Shown: positions 1 to 6,943, counted from the stretch's first letter. The stretch: 6,943 nt of DNA from an uncultured bacterium (GCA_965662235.1 CBFIGY010000059.1:1-6943); one strand, 5' to 3'. Notes: a model not told the origin generated them from the sequence alone. Numbers and translations: made by a program.

Positions 1-1257
1 CGTCTGCAGCGCCCGCACCTCCTGCAGCAGGGCCGGGTCCTGAAACTCCATCCACCCAAGCGGGTGCAGGGTCAGCAGGTGCAAAGGGGGGGCTTGGAGG
101 TTTCCGGTCAGGGCATGCCAGGCCAGGCCCATCAGCAGCAGCCGATCGCGCTCCTGCAGCGGAACATGAACCCTTTGCTCCTTCCCGGTTTCTCCCACCA
201 AAAACGCTGTATCCGGTGCCACCGGGAGGTCCAGGGCCTCCGAGTACCGGGGGGCATTCTGAAAGGACTCCGGAACCGACTCCAGCTGCTTCTGTAGGAG
301 GGCCGGTGAGCCGGCGTCCTGCAGCCAGGCCTGGAGGTAGACCTTGCGGTCAGACTGGTTTCCCAGTGCCAGCTCCTCTGGAGTCATCCACAGCAGCTGC
401 TCAGAGGGGCTGCTCTGGACCTTCCGGCAGAGCTGCTTGAAGCCCTCGGGGTGGAGCTGAATCTGGTAGCAGGAGATGTCGTAACGGGTGAGGGCGTGGT
501 TGGCCCCAGCACCTTCAATCTCCTGGTAGGGGTGCTGGAGCGAGGAAAACGGGTGGGCGGTGTAGTGCTGGGGCAGCAGTCCCAGCTCCTCCCGGAGCTC
601 CCGTTCCAGCGTCTGACGGAGGGCTTGCTGAACCGGAGCCCCTGGAGGCGCCTGCTGGAGACGGACCAGCGCAGGACGCGAGAGCTGGGAGCCTTCGGCA
701 TTGAGGTCGTGCAGGTTGAGCTTGCCGCCAATGAGGACGTAGTTGGGGCGTCCGGTCCGGTGGATGTCTTCACGGTGGTTGACAAGGAACCGTCCTTGGA
801 GGCGGATCAGGCCCCAGGCCACATGGACCTGTCGGATGGGAGGGGCCGTCTGGGGAGCAGTGGCCAGGCGCTGGGCTTCGGCACGCGCCAGCCAGTTGCG
901 CTGTCGGTCTTCTGCAAAGCCAGGTGTCCAGAAGCCTGACTCCAGCAGCGCCGGGTGGTGCTGCGAGAGGCTTTCGAGCAGGGAGCGCGCCATCAGGGAA
1001 GCTGGGAAGCTTTGAAACTTCCAGAGGGCTTCCTGGAGGGCAAAGACGTCCAGCAGTCCCAACGCTTCCCAGAGGTGCTGGAGCAGCGTTAGGGTGCCCT
1101 GAACCCGTTCCTCAGCAAGCCCGGTCTCTAGGGTCACCTGTTCCAGCAGGTGCTGCACCGGAACCTCTTCGGCAACAAAGGTTTCCTCGGAGTGGACCGG
1201 CAGGAGGGGCTTCAGGGCCGTGAGGATGAGCAGCAGTTGAGCGGTTCCATGAGTCAT
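1..1257 (-). CDS. Nudix-fold hydrolase with N-terminal helical (possibly wHTH-like) region; 3'-truncated by the window edge (>419 aa)
   Basis: Not in the ORF track because there is no stop in the window. Manual translation from ATG 1257 (GAAGGA RBS-like site just upstream) is open to base 1: MTHGTAQLLLILTALKPLLP...PIRQVHVAWGLIRLQGRFLVNHRED...NYVLIGGKLN...LRQTLERELREELGL...LLWMTPEEL... It has a Nudix-like beta strand plus LxxxR, a 'GG' at 724-729, the REUxEExGU helix RELREELGL at 577-603, and the typical downstream W-x-x-x-EEL. Confidence 0.85.
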   Translation of the reverse strand, partial: MTHGTAQLLLILTALKPLLPVHSEETFVAEEVPVQHLLEQVTLETGLAEERVQGTLTLLQHLWEALGLLDVFALQEALWKFQSFPASLMARSLLESLSQHHPALLESGFWTPGFAEDRQRNWLARAEAQRLATAPQTAPPIRQVHVAWGLIRLQGRFLVNHREDIHRTGRPNYVLIGGKLNLHDLNAEGSQLSRPALVRLQQAPPGAPVQQALRQTLERELREELGLLPQHYTAHPFSSLQHPYQEIEGAGANHALTRYDISCYQIQLHPEGFKQLCRKVQSSPSEQLLWMTPEELALGNQSDRKVYLQAWLQDAGSPALLQKQLESVPESFQNAPRYSEALDLPVAPDTAFLVGETGKEQRVHVPLQERDRLLLMGLAWHALTGNLQAPPLHLLTLHPLGWMEFQDPALLQEVRALQT

Positions 1258-1278
1258 GAGGCGTCCTTCAGTTGGAGG

Positions 1279-2211
1279 TCAGCGGGGCAGGGCAATCCAG
1301 TCTCCGAGCGCTTCCTGGAGGGATTCCGGAAGCACCGGGCCGTTCAGAGGACCGGTCAGACACCACTGGTCAAAATCGGTCTTCTTCAGCTTGGGGGTGC
1401 ACCGCAGCGCCAGAGGGGTTTCTCCCGTCACCCGCCAGTGGAGCACCAGCATCGGACGGTCGGTGTCTGTCCGATTAACTCGGAGGTGTACAAGCAGGCC
1501 TTCCGGACTGAGGAGCCGAGGCCCCAGACGGATCATCTCCTCCGGACGCCGCAGCGCTAGGTGAAGGCGGTGCTGCTCGGTCCAGACGTCCACCCCAGAG
1601 TCGATCAAGGAAGCCTTCTGGACAATCCAAGAATGGAATCCCAGCTCCGGACTCCGGAAGGCGGAGGGACCAAATGAGACACCATCCCAGGCCTGCTGCA
1701 CCCACGTCGGGAGGTCCACCTGAGCCTCATATCCGTTGGGGCCAACCCACCCCTGTGCTGGAAGCGGCCGTGGCACCTGCTCAGGCGAAGGACAGCGGGC
1801 AGGGTGAAAGGCCCAGGCCTTCCGGGGTCCCGAGTGCGGACGGGCGTGGGCGAGGCGTTCCATGAAAAAGTACTTCAGGTTGCTGGTGAGGACAAGCCCC
1901 CCGCGGGCTTCTGGATTGAAGGTGCTGTTGATCCAGACCCGGGACTGCCGACAAGTCTTCGAGAAGGCGAGGCGGGTGAGCCAGACGGCCACCTGGCGGT
2001 TGGCGTCATCCAGTCGAAAGGGCTCCAGGGCGGTTCCGGTGAAGTGACAGAGCACGGATTCGACCTCAGCGATGGAGTAATGGGGGCCGCTTTGCTCCAC
2101 CCAGGCGTCCAGGGCCTCCTGAACCTGCGTCCGAACCGTGGCCTCAGGGTGATGGAGGAAGGTGTAGAAGAGCAGGGGCAGGGCTCCGGTGGTGGGAAGG
2201 ACAGCTTTCAT
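1279..2211 (-). CDS. Hypothetical protein, 310 aa
   Basis: Long ORF with protein-like composition. Its ATG (2209-2211) overlaps an upstream TGA (2208-2210, ATGA coupling), and it ends 21 nt before the Nudix ATG. No motif recognised. Confidence 0.75.
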   Translation of the reverse strand: MKAVLPTTGALPLLFYTFLHHPEATVRTQVQEALDAWVEQSGPHYSIAEVESVLCHFTGTALEPFRLDDANRQVAVWLTRLAFSKTCRQSRVWINSTFNPEARGGLVLTSNLKYFFMERLAHARPHSGPRKAWAFHPARCPSPEQVPRPLPAQGWVGPNGYEAQVDLPTWVQQAWDGVSFGPSAFRSPELGFHSWIVQKASLIDSGVDVWTEQHRLHLALRRPEEMIRLGPRLLSPEGLLVHLRVNRTDTDRPMLVLHWRVTGETPLALRCTPKLKKTDFDQWCLTGPLNGPVLPESLQEALGDWIALPR

Positions 2212-2408
2212 GATCGACTCAGAGCAAGGCGTTCAGGGTCTCCNNNNNNNNNNCGTAACCGACCACACGCCGGGCCAGCTTCCGGGCTTCCTGCATCCTG
2301 AAGCAAGGCGCTGTGCCAGTTGCTCAGTGGAAGCCGGCTGTGCCCAAAGCGGAGGTTCTTGACCTGCCACACGCCGGCTCCGTGCGGCCGGAGGATGAGG
2401 CGTTTCAT
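2208..2408 (-). CDS. Hypothetical protein coupled to the RT, interrupted by an assembly gap (true length unknown; may be the ends of one or more longer genes)
   Basis: ATG 2406-2408 overlaps the RT stop TGA 2405-2407. TGA 2208-2210 overlaps the next ATG. N-run at 2244-2253. Confidence 0.55.
   Translation of the reverse strand: MKRLILRPHGAGVWQVKNLRFGHSRLPLSNWHSALLQDAGSPEAGPACGRLXXXXGDPERLALSRS
2244..2253. other. Assembly/scaffold gap (10 N)
   Basis: Ten consecutive n bases. Confidence 0.99.
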
Positions 2409-5245
2409 GGGTGCACTCCGGCTGCTTGCAGCTGGGCCTGCAGGGCCTGAGCCTCCTGAGGTTGGGTTTGGGCGAGGAAGTGAATCAGGCCAAGCAGCGG
2501 CTGGTCCTCTAGGGGGCGTCCGTGCCAGAACACCGGACGTCCCTGAACCCGGTGGTGCACGGCCGCCCGGAGCTTGCGACGCAGGGGCTTGGCCCAGTTG
2601 GGCTTTTCATTCACCACCAGTCCGGTCACACACTGTCGCCGGCCTCGGCGGAAGAGGTTGGTCTTCTTGGGATCCAGCTCGTAACCCTGGTCCCGGAGGC
2701 GTTCTTCAACAAACGGGAGGATCTCCACCGCCCCCCTTCCAGAGGAGGAAAACGTCAGGTCGTCGGCGTAACGGGTGTACGTCACCCCGCGGCGAGTCGC
2801 CACAGTGGTCAGGGCGGCATCGGTGGACCGGAGCAGTTGGTTGGCCAGGGCGGGACTCGTGGGAGCCCCTGTAGGAAGGGCCTGCTCGTAGCTGAGCAGC
2901 GTTGCCAGCAGCCGGATGGCACGTGGACGGAACCGACCAGAGAGGCGCTGGCGGAGCAGCTTCAGAACCTGCGGGAAGCGGGTGTTGGGGAAGAAGCCCT
3001 TGATGTCCACATTGACGACAAGGGCCTGCCCACAGTGCCGGCGGGCGTTCTCGACAATGCCGATGCCGGGGCGAAATCCGGTTGCGGCGTCGTGCAGCTC
3101 CCAGGTGTTCAGCTCCTGATCCAGCACGGCTCGCTGGAAGCGCTTCAGGGTAGGGTGGGGGGCCGTAATGATCCGGGTGCCTCCGGAGCGCTTGGGAAGC
3201 GGGTAGGTCCGGTACCACCGGTTGCACTCATCTCCTTGCACCTGATCGTCTCGTCCGAGCGCAAGCTTCTGGGCCAAAGCGAGGAGGAAGGGCGCAAAGG
3301 CGAGCCCAAAGTGAACCGCCAGCTCAAGGGCCGCCAGCTGGTTGGGACCATAGTGGTCCTGCAGGGCTTCCAGGGCCTGAGGCAGGTCCGCTGGACGAAC
3401 GGCGTCCGCGAACTCTGAGCACAGCGTCCCCCGGGCGACAACCTGAGGGATCAGCTTCCACCACGGTGCCTGACGCTGATAGGGCTTCAGGAAATTTGGA
3501 GGGTCCTGCTCAAAGGCGTGCCGGAGGAGGTCCGGGTGGGCGTCAATGAATTCCAGAAGCTGCGGAGGAAGGGGCAGGTCGCTTTTGCCCCAGGCAGAAA
3601 AGGGGAAGGTCTTCAGCTCCTCCAGCACCTGCGGGTGCGTCCAGAAGTCTGGCCGGGGAAGCAGCAGCGCCCACTCGGTGACCGTCCAGTGCGTCCGGGG
3701 AAGCTGCTGCCGCCAGATCTGCAGGAGCTCCGGGGAAAGGCTCCGGAAGCGCTCTTGCCACTCGGGTGACGCCTCTCCTAGGTGCTCCCGGAGGGCAAGC
3801 AACGCCCGTCCCAGCAAGGCCTGATGCTTCGGACCTCCGCGGAGCAGGCGCTTGAGGCGCCAGGGCTCGAGCCACTCCGCCGCCGAAACCCCGGAGGGTC
3901 GCTGTTTTCGGAGGGCCGGCAGGTCCTGAGTGGTTCCTCTGAGGGTCCAGCTCAGGGCGGAAGGAGCTTGGAGCTGAGGCAGGTCCGGAAAGCGGGGGCT
4001 CCAGCGGTTCCAGTTGCGCAGGAAGGCGGCAGAGCGATACGGATCCCGCAGGGCCTTCTGGAGAACCGCCCGGGTCAGAACCTCCTTGAGCAAACCTGCA
4101 GCCTGAAGGTCCTGAAGCCACTGCTGGGACGCGCGCAGCTGCTGGGCGGTCGGCAGGGCTTGGGGCGCGGGGGCCGACCTAGAGGCCTCTCCGGCACCGA
4201 GGAGCTGTTGCTGAAGGTGCTTACGGACGCTGGACAGGAGCGCGTTGGGGGCCGGCGGTGACGGACGCTGGAACAGCAACTGACGCTTCAGGGACCCGGA
4301 GGTGCCAAGGATCAGGAGGCTCCAGACGACGGGCTCATGCCGCCAAGGTTCCAGGAGCAAGCGTACCTCTGGGCTGATGTTCAAGGAGAGGAGGGACCTG
4401 CTGGATACCCCCTCCAGGAAGGTGCGGAGGACCGGCAGGTGGGCCTGGAAGTCGCTGCGGTAACGGAGCCAGAAGCGCCAGGGACCCGCCTGGAGCTGCC
4501 GCTCCTGCAGGTCCTCAAAAACCTGGTCCCGGTGCTGCTTCAGCAGGTGCCACTCCGGAGTCTCTGGAAAGGTGTGAGGGGCCCCCTCCACGGCACAGAG
4601 GAAGGAGGTTTCCAGCAGATGCTGGCGGTACTCCTTGCGCAGCACCTGACGCTGCAGAGGTCGCTTGAGCTGCCGGAACAGGGTTCTGGAGAGGGTTCCC
4701 CGGACCCCTCCGTTCTGTTTCAGCAGGACCAGTTCGTCAAGGAGGTCCTGGGGATGGAGGTCGAGGTGCCGGAGGGGAAGAAGGAGCTGCCGCAGGGTGC
4801 GGCGTCGTGGAGGAAGTCCCTGGAGCAGGGCCTGAAGTGGAACGCCCTTGTGGCTCAGGCGGGCCTGACACAGCACCTCCCATTCAGGCACGTTGGGCGC
4901 CAGTGCTAGGTCCCGGTACAGCGCCCAGGCCCCTTGGGGCTCGGGCAGTTGCGCCACGGCCGCGGCCTGCACGGTTCCCAACGAGGGAAGCCCCTGGGCC
5001 AGTTCCCATTCCAAAAAGACCCGCCACCCCATCAGGTCCTCCGCGTGCAGCACCTCCTCCCGAAGGGCATCTGCCAGAGGCGGGGCTTCGGGGGCTCCGG
5101 TGAGCTCGGCCTGGAGGCGCTTCCGGAACTGCTGCAACGGGTGCTGCACCTGCTGGTGCGCCTGTCGCCAAACGTCCGGTTGGTCCAGAGGAAGGGTGCA
5201 GAGGAGGCGGAGGACGTGGTCCAGTCCGTTGAGGCTGAGTTCCAT
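2405..5245 (-). CDS. Retron-type reverse transcriptase with ~675-aa N-terminal extension (~946 aa)
   Basis: C-terminal ~270 aa (about 2405-3220) contain YRTYPLPKRSGGTRIITAP, HDAATGF, retron region-X NARRH (3035-3049), DIKGFFP, LPTGAPTSPALAN (LPTG 2867-2878), YTRYADDLTFS (YADD 2759-2770) and region-Y VTGLVVN (VTG 2621-2629). Start placed at ATG 5245, preceded by AGGAG, rather than the track's TTG 5287, which lies inside the ncRNA inverted repeat. Confidence 0.95.
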   Translation of the reverse strand: MELSLNGLDHVLRLLCTLPLDQPDVWRQAHQQVQHPLQQFRKRLQAELTGAPEAPPLADALREEVLHAEDLMGWRVFLEWELAQGLPSLGTVQAAAVAQLPEPQGAWALYRDLALAPNVPEWEVLCQARLSHKGVPLQALLQGLPPRRRTLRQLLLPLRHLDLHPQDLLDELVLLKQNGGVRGTLSRTLFRQLKRPLQRQVLRKEYRQHLLETSFLCAVEGAPHTFPETPEWHLLKQHRDQVFEDLQERQLQAGPWRFWLRYRSDFQAHLPVLRTFLEGVSSRSLLSLNISPEVRLLLEPWRHEPVVWSLLILGTSGSLKRQLLFQRPSPPAPNALLSSVRKHLQQQLLGAGEASRSAPAPQALPTAQQLRASQQWLQDLQAAGLLKEVLTRAVLQKALRDPYRSAAFLRNWNRWSPRFPDLPQLQAPSALSWTLRGTTQDLPALRKQRPSGVSAAEWLEPWRLKRLLRGGPKHQALLGRALLALREHLGEASPEWQERFRSLSPELLQIWRQQLPRTHWTVTEWALLLPRPDFWTHPQVLEELKTFPFSAWGKSDLPLPPQLLEFIDAHPDLLRHAFEQDPPNFLKPYQRQAPWWKLIPQVVARGTLCSEFADAVRPADLPQALEALQDHYGPNQLAALELAVHFGLAFAPFLLALAQKLALGRDDQVQGDECNRWYRTYPLPKRSGGTRIITAPHPTLKRFQRAVLDQELNTWELHDAATGFRPGIGIVENARRHCGQALVVNVDIKGFFPNTRFPQVLKLLRQRLSGRFRPRAIRLLATLLSYEQALPTGAPTSPALANQLLRSTDAALTTVATRRGVTYTRYADDLTFSSSGRGAVEILPFVEERLRDQGYELDPKKTNLFRRGRRQCVTGLVVNEKPNWAKPLRRKLRAAVHHRVQGRPVFWHGRPLEDQPLLGLIHFLAQTQPQEAQALQAQLQAAGVHP

Positions 5246-5249
5246 GGGG

Positions 5250-5254
5250 CTCCT
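5250..5254 (-). promoter_or_regulatory. Probable ribosome-binding site for the RT
   Basis: Minus strand reads CAC-AGGAG-CCCC-ATG. Spacing is short (4 nt) but plausible. Confidence 0.55.
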
Positions 5255-5281
5255 GTGAGGGGGGACCAGGAAAGCAGGGAG

Positions 5282-5473
5282 CAGCAACCGGATTACTGAA
5301 AAGCCGAACCTCAGTCGACACGACGCTAGAAAGTGAGCGTCGCGAACCCGAAGGAGGGAGCTCGCGCGTGGATTCGGGTAGAGCGAAGCTCACTTTCTCA
5401 AGGAGGGGAGGCCCCTGAGTCCATGATGTCACCCCTCCGGCGAAACGCCGGATCGATCCTAATCCGGTTGCTG
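5282..5473 (-). ncRNA. Putative retron msr-msd non-coding RNA
   Basis: Perfect 14-bp inverted repeat CAGCAACCGGATTA (5282-5295) / TAATCCGGTTGCTG (5460-5473) brackets the region. On the minus strand the 5' arm ends ...GATTA-G (G = 5459), opposite another G (5296). msr-like hairpin TCCGGCG-TTT-CGCCGGA (5436-5452) and GGAGGGG/CCCCTCC stem (5402-5408/5432-5438). Long msd-like hairpin at 5328-5398. Lies directly upstream of a retron RT. Confidence 0.85.
5282..5473. repeat. a1/a2-type 14-bp perfect inverted repeat (arms 5282-5295 and 5460-5473)
   Basis: cagcaaccggatta is the exact reverse complement of taatccggttgctg. Confidence 0.95.
5328..5398 (+). other. Predicted msDNA long hairpin (msd)
   Basis: AGAAAGTGAGC (5328-5338) pairs with GCTCACTTTCT (5388-5398); TCGC (5340-5343) with GCGA (5383-5386); ACCCGAA (5346-5352) with TTCGGGT (5373-5379). 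The plus strand is the cDNA sense for a minus-strand transcript. Confidence 0.75.
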
Positions 5474-5475
5474 TA

Positions 5476-5636
5476 AACCCCGAAGGGTCATGCAGTGAAA
5501 TCGGTGTGGCTGCACAGAAGCCCGGAACGGCCCCTTTGCGGGGCCTCAGGTGTTCCGGCCTCTGTTCTGCCTGATGCTGACCCTCAGTTTACGCCCTCCT
5601 CATGAAGACGGGAGGGGGCTGAGGGGAGCAACCAGG
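5476..5636 (-). ncRNA. Additional structured RNA domain (four tandem hairpins) 5' of the msr-msd
   Basis: Hairpins: ACCC-UUCG-GGGU (5477-5488, cUUCGg loop on the minus strand); TGCAG/CTGCA (5491-5514); CCGGAAC/GTTCCGG plus GGCCCC-GCAAA-GGGGCC (5522-5558); CCCTCAG/CTGAGGG plus CCCTCC/GGAGGG with outer TGCT/AGCA and CCTG/CAGG (5570-5636). Confidence 0.55.
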
Positions 5637-5654
5637 TATCCGTCCTGCCAACGC

Positions 5655-6943
5655 TCACTCCAGCGTGAGGGAGAGGGTCAGCTCCACCTGCCGGAGGGCG
5701 CGGTAGAGGCTGACGCTGTCGTCTTGAGGAAGCGCCGTGTCAACATCGCTGAACAGCTGGGAGGCAAGGTCACTGGAGGAGACGGTGAGGCTGGTGTTGT
5801 CGGTGCTGGCGTTGTCAAACGACCAGGTCAGGGTTCCGGTGGCTGAGCCACCCCGGATCACCCCATCCATCAAGTAGTCGGCTGGTGCACTGGCAGCGTA
5901 GGCAAGGAGCAGGCGCTGGTAGCTGAGGTTGACATCGTGTGACACCTGATGGGTGAAGGTCTCCGTCTGGTTGTCGAGGGTGACCTGGGTAACCACTTCC
6001 ACAGTGGAGGCGGTGGCGGTGGGGTCGATCACAATCCCACTGAAGTAGTCACCGGTCAGGGCGCCCAAGGAGCCGGAGATCGCCTGAGGCAGCTTCTGGG
6101 CATTGGGAGAGGCGTCAATCATTGACACCATGGTTGCCGGGATCACCGGCTTCTTCAGCTGTCCTCCGGACTGGGTGAAGGCGTGCGCAAAGGCCAGCCA
6201 GAGGCCTCCTGATGAGTAGCTCAGGGTGCCATAGGCGCCCAGTCGCCCCAGGTCACCTGACAGGTCGAGCACCGCCACCGTGTTGCCCGGTTGCAGCAGC
6301 GGCTGCAGCACCGCGTTGGGGTTCCGTTCAGAAGACGGGCGCCGTGGGGGAAGGAGGGCGGCGAGGGTCCGGTAGGGCAAGGCGCGTTCCTGAGCGGCAA
6401 GCGTGCTCAGCGTCTCCCGCAGCGTCATGGAAGACCCGGCCATGCCCAGTGGCTGGAAGCCTGCTCCTGCAGCCGAGGTCCTCTCCTGACGGAGGCTCTG
6501 GCGGGCGGCCTGAGGCCTCTGGGGCAGGGTCAGCAGGTCTTCAATGGCCCGTGCAGCAAAGAAGTGCTTGTTGTCCGCCCATCCGTAACACAGGGCGGCC
6601 ACCACCCGACCCTCGGCATCCAGCACCGGAGAACCGCTGTCGCCGGCTCCAATGATGAGGTCCTCTGCTGTGGAGAGCAGCACCAGGCGTTCGCCAGAAT
6701 CATAGACGGAGTCAAAGGCGACGGTGTACTCGTCCACCTGCGTCCCCCTTCGGTTCAACCGGAGACGCAGTTCGGTGCCGGGCTCCAGACCGGAGAGGGT
6801 GGAAAATGAAGCATACCCTTCGGAGGGCGCCGCCACGTCTTCCTGAACCAGAGACGATGACGGGCTGCTCAAGCTGGAGGTGCTGTCGTTGGAACAGGCA
6901 GGAAGGAGGAGCAGCAAGAAGGCTCCAAGAGCCTGTAGGATAC
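5655..6943 (-). CDS. Lipoprotein, SpoIVB-like (peptidase S55-type) serine protease domain; 5'-truncated
   Basis: The frame is open to the right edge (..ILQALGAFLLLLLPA-C-SNDSTSS), giving a hydrophobic signal, a lipobox Cys at 6894-6896 and a Ser-rich linker. Motifs IIGAGDSGSPV..GRVVAALCYGW (GDSGSP 6627-6644), LQPGNTVAV..GDL..LGAYGTLSY and LAFAHAF (His 6183-6185) resemble the GMSGSPV / GTVTY / LAFGHPF pattern of SpoIVB-S55 domain proteins. Confidence 0.75.
   Translation of the reverse strand, partial: ILQALGAFLLLLLPACSNDSTSSLSSPSSSLVQEDVAAPSEGYASFSTLSGLEPGTELRLRLNRRGTQVDEYTVAFDSVYDSGERLVLLSTAEDLIIGAGDSGSPVLDAEGRVVAALCYGWADNKHFFAARAIEDLLTLPQRPQAARQSLRQERTSAAGAGFQPLGMAGSSMTLRETLSTLAAQERALPYRTLAALLPPRRPSSERNPNAVLQPLLQPGNTVAVLDLSGDLGRLGAYGTLSYSSGGLWLAFAHAFTQSGGQLKKPVIPATMVSMIDASPNAQKLPQAISGSLGALTGDYFSGIVIDPTATASTVEVVTQVTLDNQTETFTHQVSHDVNLSYQRLLLAYAASAPADYLMDGVIRGGSATGTLTWSFDNASTDNTSLTVSSSDLASQLFSDVDTALPQDDSVSLYRALRQVELTLSLTLE

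Follow-up and report, generated by a model that had tools for sequence, protein, structure and literature searches.

The question raised by a 6,943-nucleotide (nt) stretch of DNA from a bacterium of an uncultured marine phylum (GCA_965662235.1, CBFIGY010000059.1:1-6943) is whether the retron-like element on it, a noncoding RNA (ncRNA) followed by a giant reverse transcriptase (RT), forms a defense system of a new architecture with the genes downstream, as an initial annotation had proposed. This stretch, henceforth the window, comprises contig C59 of a 3.47-Mb, 75-contig genome in full, and every feature of interest lies on its minus strand (Table 1). We found that the retron is genuine and of an unclassified RT lineage and that, in one genus, it heads a vertically inherited, codirectional operon with a putative role in defense. 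The proposed novelty is sustained by the unclassified retron and its novel set of neighbors; it is tempered by the findings that one of the presumed genes is a pseudogene and that the Nudix-like gene is mobile. That at least one downstream gene encodes the effector of the retron is, in our estimation, about an even chance (probability of roughly 0.5).

The RT, its N-terminal extension, and the ncRNA

The RT of 946 amino acids (aa) is encoded, as first annotated, on the same strand as the ncRNA, by an open reading frame (ORF) at 5245-2405, in which Pfam RVT_1 matches residues 684 to 866 (E = 2.8e-20). Its start codon, the ATG at 5245, has AGGAG in front of it and lines up with those of its relatives; a longer frame with a TTG start would extend into the a2 repeat of the ncRNA. 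The motif descriptions in PMC7736814 define retron RTs by NAxxH in region X, the catalytic YxDD motif, and VTG in region Y, and the corresponding VENARRH, YADD, and VTG are invariant across the RT of the window and those of two genus-mates, G046 and G047. The C-terminal part of the protein also matches retron RTs in Foldseek comparisons, including the Ec86 RT chain 7v9x_A with a probability of 1.00. In a tree of 10 rows drawn from the same phylum, the RTs of the window and the two genus-mates were compared with four typed retron RTs and three group II intron RTs. All three lie within the retron group, which is separated from the group II intron RTs at 100/100, and make up a separate long branch (96/99) that, within this small reference set, joins no type, the type XIII row included.

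Profile searches place the RT among retrons but at a distance from every type. It matches 60 PADLOC families, and the best 25 of these 60 are all retron RT models, headed by RT_XIII (235.3 bits), RT_X (211.3), Ec107-like (207.3), III-A (201.4), RT_other (200.8), and the outgroup (200.1). We calibrated these values by scoring four typed retron RTs of the same phylum, which reach 425, 592, 388, and 401 bits against their home models and lead the next class by 181, 188, 144, and 39 bits, with cross-class scores of up to 244 to 404 bits. The best score of the window RT lies within this cross-class range and it therefore appears to be a member of no modeled type; in this respect, as far as the PADLOC models reach, the proposal of an undescribed retron is supported. 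The NCBIfam retron models all stay below their cutoffs, among them retron_St85_RT with 201.5 bits against a cutoff of 235. An assignment to the unknown-group/abortive-infection (UG/Abi) or defense-associated (DRT) RTs was rejected, since NCBIfam Drt2 gives 31 bits against a cutoff of 390 and the best 25 PADLOC matches are all retron models. A metagenome scan with the RT alignment retrieved no relative.

Type XIII requires separate comment. According to the type descriptions in PMC7736814, RTs of this type work with a HEAT/ARM-like helical repeat protein. The window resembles type XIII in that RT_XIII is the best PADLOC model, the RT has a long helical domain, and the locus is apparently vertically inherited. 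In contrast, the true type XIII RT of the phylum, from G068, stands at 425 bits and 181 bits above the runner-up, whereas the lead here is 24 bits. Given this narrow lead and the lack of any match to a winged helix-turn-helix-SWIM or HEAT/ARM-type accessory, we rejected type XIII membership: the PADLOC models for type XIII accessories have no match in the RT extension or the neighboring genes, and the G068 positive control yields its SWIM_XIII neighbor at 428 bits.

The first 670 residues of the RT constitute an extension to which Pfam and PADLOC return nothing at E values of up to 10. A word-indexed search of 5.8 billion proteins recovered one full-length relative, 57% identical. Among 88 genomes of the phylum, the extension is whole only in the two genus-mates G046 and G047 (48% and 41% identity); in G061 a remnant is left, and a match in G057 (E = 6.7e-4) is doubtful and has an internal stop. 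An AlphaFold2 model built from three sequences is helical throughout, with a mean predicted local distance difference test score (pLDDT) of 61 and values of 70 to 90 at residues 130 to 350. Foldseek returns only weak helical-repeat rows (E values of 4e-3 and above), so that a HEAT/ARM reading is an analogy rather than a finding, and "alpha-solenoid scaffold" may serve as a description of the predicted model only. A large RT polypeptide with an additional domain is reminiscent of the fused retrons of types I-C (Toprim), VII-A1 (DUF3800), XI (protease), and XII (TIR); in those, as the account of fusions in PMC7736814 has it, the extra domains are C terminal and recognizably enzymatic, whereas here 670 helical residues of no family are N terminal.

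The remnant in G061 lies at L010 8324-11095 (G061:C121) as a 923-aa open frame in which the C-terminal half of the extension and the RT fingers are joined to DUF2201, whose domains are metallopeptidase/VWA-like. This frame, which looks like a deletion-derived RT remnant, is directly 5' of BrxA-BrxB-BrxC. In G046, too, a DUF2201 homolog is present, some 7 kb away from the retron.

A structured ncRNA lies on the same strand directly 5' of the RT and is closed by a1 and a2, perfect 14-nt inverted repeats 164 nt apart that enclose a short and a long hairpin, as is characteristic of retrons. The GG after a1 is compatible with the branching G of retrons, and the long hairpin has arms of 16 nt that are 94% complementary and 39 nt apart. 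The folding energy of a 221-nt stretch is -97.3 kcal/mol (z = -4.5), and none of 200 shuffles folds equally well. Comparison was with G046, the sole other copy available, and hence involves two sequences. Of 189 aligned bases in the core, 151 (80%) are identical, whereas the upstream spacer has 91 of 180 (51%), and 3 of the 32 pairs of the named structure (a1/a2, msr hairpin, and long hairpin) are changed on both sides yet stay paired, with 1 broken. Two of these compensatory changes, both A-U to G-C, are in a1/a2, while the third, like the broken pair, is in the long hairpin. Slid controls give 0 to 1 both-side changes; a shuffle control, weak with two sequences, reaches the observed covariation value in 53 of 500 shuffles. 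The repeats, the fold, and the compensatory changes support the original call of a retron-like ncRNA, the extent of which, drawn up to 5636, was too wide, as the core ends at 5473. No Rfam family reaches an E value of 1 in the ncRNA, and the only match, to an L31 leader, is below threshold, lies inside the RT gene on the opposite strand, and was set aside as chance. G046 carries the 5' msr segment a second time, as a partial copy (L008 9551-9578, minus strand; 28 nt with one difference) 227 nt upstream of the retron ncRNA and without an a1 repeat.

Table 1. Features of the window in 5'-to-3' order of the minus strand, with subfeatures listed after the feature that contains them
Feature	Position or length	Strand	Remarks
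Lipoprotein-like gene	6917-5655	-	First in 5'-to-3' order
Spacer from lipoprotein-like gene to ncRNA	181 nt	-	
ncRNA core (msr-msd), closed by a1/a2 inverted repeats	5282..5473	-	192 nt; repeat search, fold z-score, comparison with G046
a1 repeat, followed by GG (candidate branching G)	5460..5473	-	14 nt, pairing 100% with a2
msr hairpin	5436..5452	-	7 bp, loop UUU; identical in G046
Long hairpin, candidate msd stem (msDNA template)	5328..5398	-	Arms 5398-5383/5343-5328
a2 repeat	5282..5295	-	Pairing with a1; 36 nt 5' of RT start codon
RT ORF	5245-2405	-	946 aa
RT N-terminal extension, residues 1-670, predicted all alpha-helical	3236..5245	-	AlphaFold2, family searches
Retron-type RT domain, residues 671-946	2405..3235	-	RVT_1, PADLOC, motifs, Foldseek
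Putative DNA methyltransferase remnant (pseudogene), contains assembly gap	2219..2408	-	190 positions; alignment to intact genus-mate genes
Assembly gap, 10 N representing 31 nt	2244..2253		Bridged by public contig
310-aa ORF, unannotated family	1279..2211	-	Homolog clusters, AlphaFold2
Nudix-like ORF, first 419 of ~550 residues	1..1257	-	Contig end cuts the rest

Genes downstream of the RT

The overlap of the RT stop with the next ATG at 2405-2408 is present in the sequence, as is the 21-nt spacer (1278-1258) that leads from the 310-aa ORF to the following ATG (1257). The second ATGA overlap reported at 2208-2211 proved to be an artifact of reading in the wrong frame through 10 N, and the 66-aa coupled ORF (2408-2208) that it delimits is not a gene but what is left of a DNA methyltransferase of 258 aa after two internal deletions. 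In G047 and G046, the RT is followed by an intact 258-aa gene that overlaps its stop in the same way and matches PF01555 (N6_N4_Mtase) with E values of 1.5e-22 and 2.1e-21, respectively, and the genus-mate enzyme matches PADLOC MTase_II (E = 8e-28). It has SPPY near the N terminus and DPFAGGG near the C terminus, an order that we take to be that of a beta-class N6/N4 methyltransferase. The window keeps four pieces, namely, the first codons, a stretch of 35 codons from the middle, a C-terminal stretch of 14 codons that reads MQEARKLARRVVGY and is out of frame with the start codon, and the final 7 codons. These occupy 190 positions, or 211 nt when the gap is counted as 31 nt, against 777 nt for the intact gene; about 570 nt, SPPY included, have been lost, and there is a frameshift. 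The true stop of the remnant, TGA at 2221-2219, is 7 nt 5' of the ATG of the 310-aa gene at 2211. On the strength of this alignment, we interpret 2408-2219 as an N6/N4 DNA methyltransferase pseudogene. The genome holds no second copy of the methyltransferase, its only other match being an unrelated methyltransferase-like stretch with 43% identity over 70 residues.

The initial annotation had cautioned that the genes left of 2244 are linked to the RT only across an assembly gap. We aligned to positions 1300-3300 the Logan contigs of four public runs (X1 to X4) from four studies, the best matching of which may be the source sample of the genome, the others being independent studies. Record 2 of X1 (648 nt) spans 1670-2296, crosses the gap, and supplies 21 letters beyond the 10 N, so that the true size of the gap is 31 nt, where relatives have 36 nt; the loose ends of runs X3 and X4 carry identical gap letters. 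As the gap is thus bridged and the gene order is kept in relatives, the caveat is settled in favor of linkage. The deletions themselves are real as well: record 6 of X2 covers 2257-2487 with no differences and thereby confirms both deletion junctions, record 12 of X3 and record 18 of X4 each confirm one, and the truncated methyltransferase is present in contigs of all four runs. The bridging X1 contig stops exactly at the second deletion junction (2296), and the next X1 contig begins at 2335, a break that may reflect strain variation within the sample.

A second retron-methylase neighborhood occurs in the same phylum in G064 (L065 54-3371, G064:C1), where a type II-A retron (NDT_II-A and RT_II-A) is followed after 140 nt by a 399-aa methyltransferase. 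The best PADLOC model of that enzyme, PDLC03353, is also the best model of the methylase of the window lineage; their mutual identity is only 25%.

For the 310-aa protein, Pfam and PADLOC return nothing and NCBIfam nothing credible. A profile built from three orthologs retrieved 169 representative clusters at E values of up to 1e-3, of which 98 reach 1e-10, with most members 300 to 345 aa long, and a Pfam scan of 48 family members gave no credible family, the one match having an E value of 0.0044. Few residues are conserved throughout the family, namely, the invariant G59, P64, and G105 and the nearly invariant R27, T60, E63, F65, R119, E224, and W283; by our own reading, the conserved residues form none of the D...(D/E)xK, HNH, or GIY-YIG patterns of nucleases. 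AlphaFold2 with the family alignment predicts with confidence (pLDDT of 91.9; predicted template modeling score of 0.87) an N-terminal part of four helices, a middle part of mixed structure, and a beta-sandwich. Foldseek finds nothing for this model at E values of up to 1e-3 in PDB or BFVD, and the best score of an exhaustive VIA search (Z = 5.6) is to Ig-like domains over residues 149 to 265 only, a value typical of a common arrangement, so that the predicted structure is a confident one that matches no known fold. Within the phylum, the gene occurs in 3 of 88 genomes, all of this genus. It yielded no cluster in the ESM Atlas (best score, 0.82), nothing in a single-protein metagenome scan or, for the family, in two scans of viral contigs, no tblastn match in plasmids or phages, and no instance in 401 sampled Pseudomonadota genomes or in the 3 genomes examined that hold the Nudix-like gene.

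Nudix hydrolases are characterized by a Nudix box with the consensus G-x5-E-x7-R-E-U-x-E-E-x-G-U on a Nudix fold. In 22 homologs of the protein encoded by the last ORF, the full-length versions of which have 546 to 552 aa, GG and R-E-x-x-E-E (RELREELGL) are invariant with about 25 residues inserted between them. Precomputed annotation assigns PF00293 to 8 of the 22, which include a Hahella protein named "Nudix hydrolase domain-containing" by its source, and a profile search of the PDB gives weak matches to MutT-related chains (E values of 0.009 to 0.15; 3grn_A, 0.009). The Pfam NUDIX score of the window ORF is subthreshold (E = 9e-4; 19.7 bits against a cutoff of 21.1). The protein may accordingly be described as Nudix-like. 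The family is represented in the Atlas by clusters of 69 to 158 members from several phyla, and the only PADLOC match of the Nudix-like protein is a chance-level one to PDC-S07.

We collected 43 loci of this family (L011 to L053) from a collection of species-representative genomes and identified the neighbors by tblastn and the 310-aa family profile. RT, methyltransferase, or 310-aa neighbors are present in 2 of them, both from the genus-mates, and in L033 a group II intron RT with a maturase domain, unrelated to the retron RT, is next to the Nudix-like gene; other loci place the gene among BREX, type I restriction-modification (R-M), helicase, and uncharacterized genes. On this distribution, the Nudix-like gene is a mobile gene of defense islands. 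Its recurrent partner is a 565- to 579-aa protein with a Macro domain (Pfam E value, 3e-12); within the phylum, 9 loci have a visible flank, and the protein adjoins the Nudix-like one in 6 of these (G046, G061, G049, G050, G054, and G055). In G046, the macro-domain gene comes immediately after the Nudix-like one in the retron operon, with its sequence interrupted by a run of N; it was not found in G047. The contig of the window ends inside the Nudix-like gene, so that a macro-domain gene there cannot be judged, and the other contigs of the genome contain no Nudix-like gene. PADLOC v2 lacks the Nudix-like family and its partners, apart from a weak DarG-type match of the macro-domain protein (E = 1.2e-6). 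This match recalls DarTG systems with their macro-domain antitoxins; unlike in those, no DarT-like toxin was seen here, and the partner has a large uncharacterized C-terminal part.

Several further associations of the Nudix-like family emerged. A protein of about 950 aa with Sel1 and HATPase_c domains is near the gene in 12 of the 43 loci, and an uncharacterized protein of about 480 aa is near it in 11; the two are mostly an adjacent pair, up- or downstream of the Nudix-like gene, and none of the three is in PADLOC v2. Together, they possibly constitute an undescribed three-gene module of defense islands. In G057 and G060 (L092 and L096), the Nudix-like gene is near a gene for a Cas6-domain protein, and that of G057 comes immediately after a HicB-like antitoxin-type gene. 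In G061 (L097, G061:C149, 141-8865), genes for PglZ, BrxL, a 198-aa uncharacterized protein, the Nudix-like protein, and the macro-domain protein lie on one strand; the BREX locus of this genome may thus be flanked, across two contigs, by the RT remnant on one side and the Nudix-macro pair on the other.

Coupling of the neighbors to the retron

The case for coupling is one of conserved order. G046 and G047 keep the succession of RT, methyltransferase, 310-aa, and Nudix-like genes at protein identities of 41 to 80%, with the RT stop/start overlap followed by junctions of 6 to 7 nt and then 25 to 42 nt. The RT, 310-aa, and Nudix-like ORFs are intact in all three genomes (that of the last, in the window, as far as the contig end), and the latter two have remained so in the window despite the decay of the methyltransferase. 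The proposed co-occurrence of these neighbors with the RT thus stands for the two genus-mates and fails more widely, as the Nudix-like gene is mostly found without this RT. Several observations weigh against coupling. The evidence comes from a single lineage of three genomes; 40 of the 43 Nudix-like loci are without RT, methyltransferase, and 310-aa neighbors; and the family is present in 10 of the 88 genomes of the phylum, 7 of which lack this RT. The 310-aa family is far wider than the RT extension and shows no recognizable enzymatic fold or motif, the Pfam NUDIX score is below the curated cutoff in both the window and G046, and one gene of the operon is already a pseudogene, as would also fit a decaying locus. 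With the 310-aa family in 169 clusters and the extension confined to one genus, the co-occurrence amounts to one evolutionary event. A complex prediction for the RT extension (residues 1 to 670) and the 310-aa protein, run without controls, gave a score of 0.00 that speaks neither for nor against coupling.

Each downstream component has an independent life elsewhere. The survey of effectors in PMC7736814 notes that those described for retrons are also used by other defense systems, and for this reason the independent life of the neighbors is no argument against coupling; it neither contradicts nor proves it. By a similar token, the discussion of RT-based systems in PMC9226505 notes that they exchange Nudix modules. 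One such system, UG23 (a class 1 UG/Abi RT) with its 2TM-NUDIX protein, as described there, resembles the window in placing a defense RT beside a Nudix-domain protein; unlike here, the RT is not of the retron type and has no msr-msd, and the Nudix partner is a membrane protein of another family.

The strongest competitor, which we regard as a real though less favored possibility, is that the array reflects juxtaposition within a defense island: the retron would be self-contained, with the fused N-terminal domain as its only partner or effector, as in the single-gene fused retrons, and the methyltransferase with the 310-aa protein and the Nudix-like protein with the macro-domain protein would be independent modules sharing a strand and a promoter. 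The distribution of the Nudix-like gene, alone or with other partners in those 40 loci, its recurrent macro-domain partner, and G061, where the RT remnant is beside BrxA-BrxB-BrxC and the Nudix-macro pair is beside PglZ-BrxL on another contig, would all be expected of such modules, as would the loss of the methyltransferase with the other genes left in place. Yet an all-helical, repeat-like domain is no obvious toxin, the tight junctions and the RT stop/start overlap have been preserved in three diverged genomes, and no terminator-like site separates the genes in the portion scanned (5150-5750), where the sole site is inside the ncRNA.

We consider it improbable that the locus is decaying or domesticated, with no current role in defense. 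The methyltransferase pseudogene, the RT remnant fused to the DUF2201 gene in G061, and the vertical occurrence in few related genomes are compatible with such a fate; for type XIII, the discussion by Mestre et al. (2020, PMC7736814) reports vertical inheritance and reads it as a possible sign of domestication. Against this, three large ORFs persist intact in three genomes, and the ncRNA is conserved well above its flank, with compensatory changes. Least probable of all, and in our view very unlikely, is an R-M-like pair beside the retron, with the 310-aa protein as the nuclease partner of the methyltransferase. In its favor, the type II-like methylase of G046 and G047 stands 6 to 7 nt 5' of the 310-aa gene, and the latter is without annotation, as restriction enzymes often are. 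This reading is weakened by the loss of the methylase, SPPY region included, beside an intact 310-aa gene (so that a type II R-M pair was rejected for the window), with no second copy in the genome and the truncation recurring in four runs, by the lack of a nuclease motif pattern among the conserved residues of the 310-aa protein, and, as a point that alone would decide nothing, by the lack of any nuclease fold match for its confident model.

Returning to the reading in which at least one neighbor is the effector, a working model can be borrowed from Retron-Sen2 and Retron-Eco1, in which the RT-multicopy single-stranded DNA (msDNA) complex restrains an effector and the msDNA acts as the sensor. 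The RT would copy the long hairpin into msDNA, starting from the branching G next to a1, and the 670-aa helical domain might act as a built-in scaffold or sensor, the role proposed for the HEAT/ARM-like proteins of type XIII. The RT-msDNA complex would restrain at least one downstream protein, be it the 310-aa protein, the Nudix-like enzyme, or both, the latter potentially hydrolyzing a nucleotide of the NAD or ADP-ribose type. A phage that damages or modifies the msDNA would free the restrained protein, and the infection would be aborted. The methyltransferase would then be a losable accessory that has been lost in the window. In Retron-Sen2, the trigger is methylation of the msDNA by a DNA adenine methyltransferase, as the account of its activation (10.64898/2026.10.13.758329) puts it, which makes a methylase within a retron operon noteworthy and, by this analogy, an attractive lead. 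There, unlike here, the methylase is external to the system and the effector is RcaT; PADLOC detects no RcaT/NDT-like protein in the window, and the methylase of the present lineage is operon encoded and losable. A fuller scheme appears unlikely to us but is worth stating: in a new retron type, its own methyltransferase would mark the msDNA or the genome, the 310-aa protein would read the state of the msDNA on the RT scaffold, the Nudix-like and macro-domain proteins would execute an abortive response based on NAD or ADP-ribose, and strains without the methylase would have a retuned trigger threshold.

The 13 retron types are without a long RT domain at the N terminus, and none of them includes a macro-domain protein, a Nudix-like enzyme, or a DNA methyltransferase; the combination of a retron and a helical front end with a methylase, a protein without a fold match, and a Nudix-type enzyme is undescribed for retrons. 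The words "Nudix," "methyltransferase," and "methylase" are absent from Mestre et al. (2020) and from the 2026 SPIRE retron survey, and literature searches for a retron with a Nudix protein, or also with a methyltransferase, found no such architecture described, with supplementary tables lying outside both searches. In keeping with this, no PADLOC effector model matches the neighbors, as had been anticipated from their lack of resemblance to known retron effectors. If they are coupled to the retron, they would represent a new effector class, connect retrons with the chemistry of nucleotides or ADP-ribose, bring a methylase into a type of system of which one member is triggered by msDNA methylation, and provide a first functional context for the 310-aa family and the Nudix-like family of about 550 aa. 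If they are not, the locus would still be a clean example of a new lineage of retron RTs in an uncultured marine phylum.

Flanking features of the window

The composition of the window carries no island signal, the G+C fraction being 0.62 to 0.69 all along it. The scan of 5150-5750 found no sigma-70-like promoter site, and the sequencing runs listed for the window include no RNA datasets. The gene upstream of the ncRNA encodes a 420-aa lipoprotein-like protein with the leader LLLLLPAC, a GDSGSP motif, and a weak trypsin-like serine-protease signature (Trypsin_2, E = 0.015). Among 45 genomes of the family, it occurs only in that of the window (G000) and in G046, at 61% identity. It may be part of the same island as the retron, and its presence at the flank in both genomes indicates that the position of the locus is inherited.

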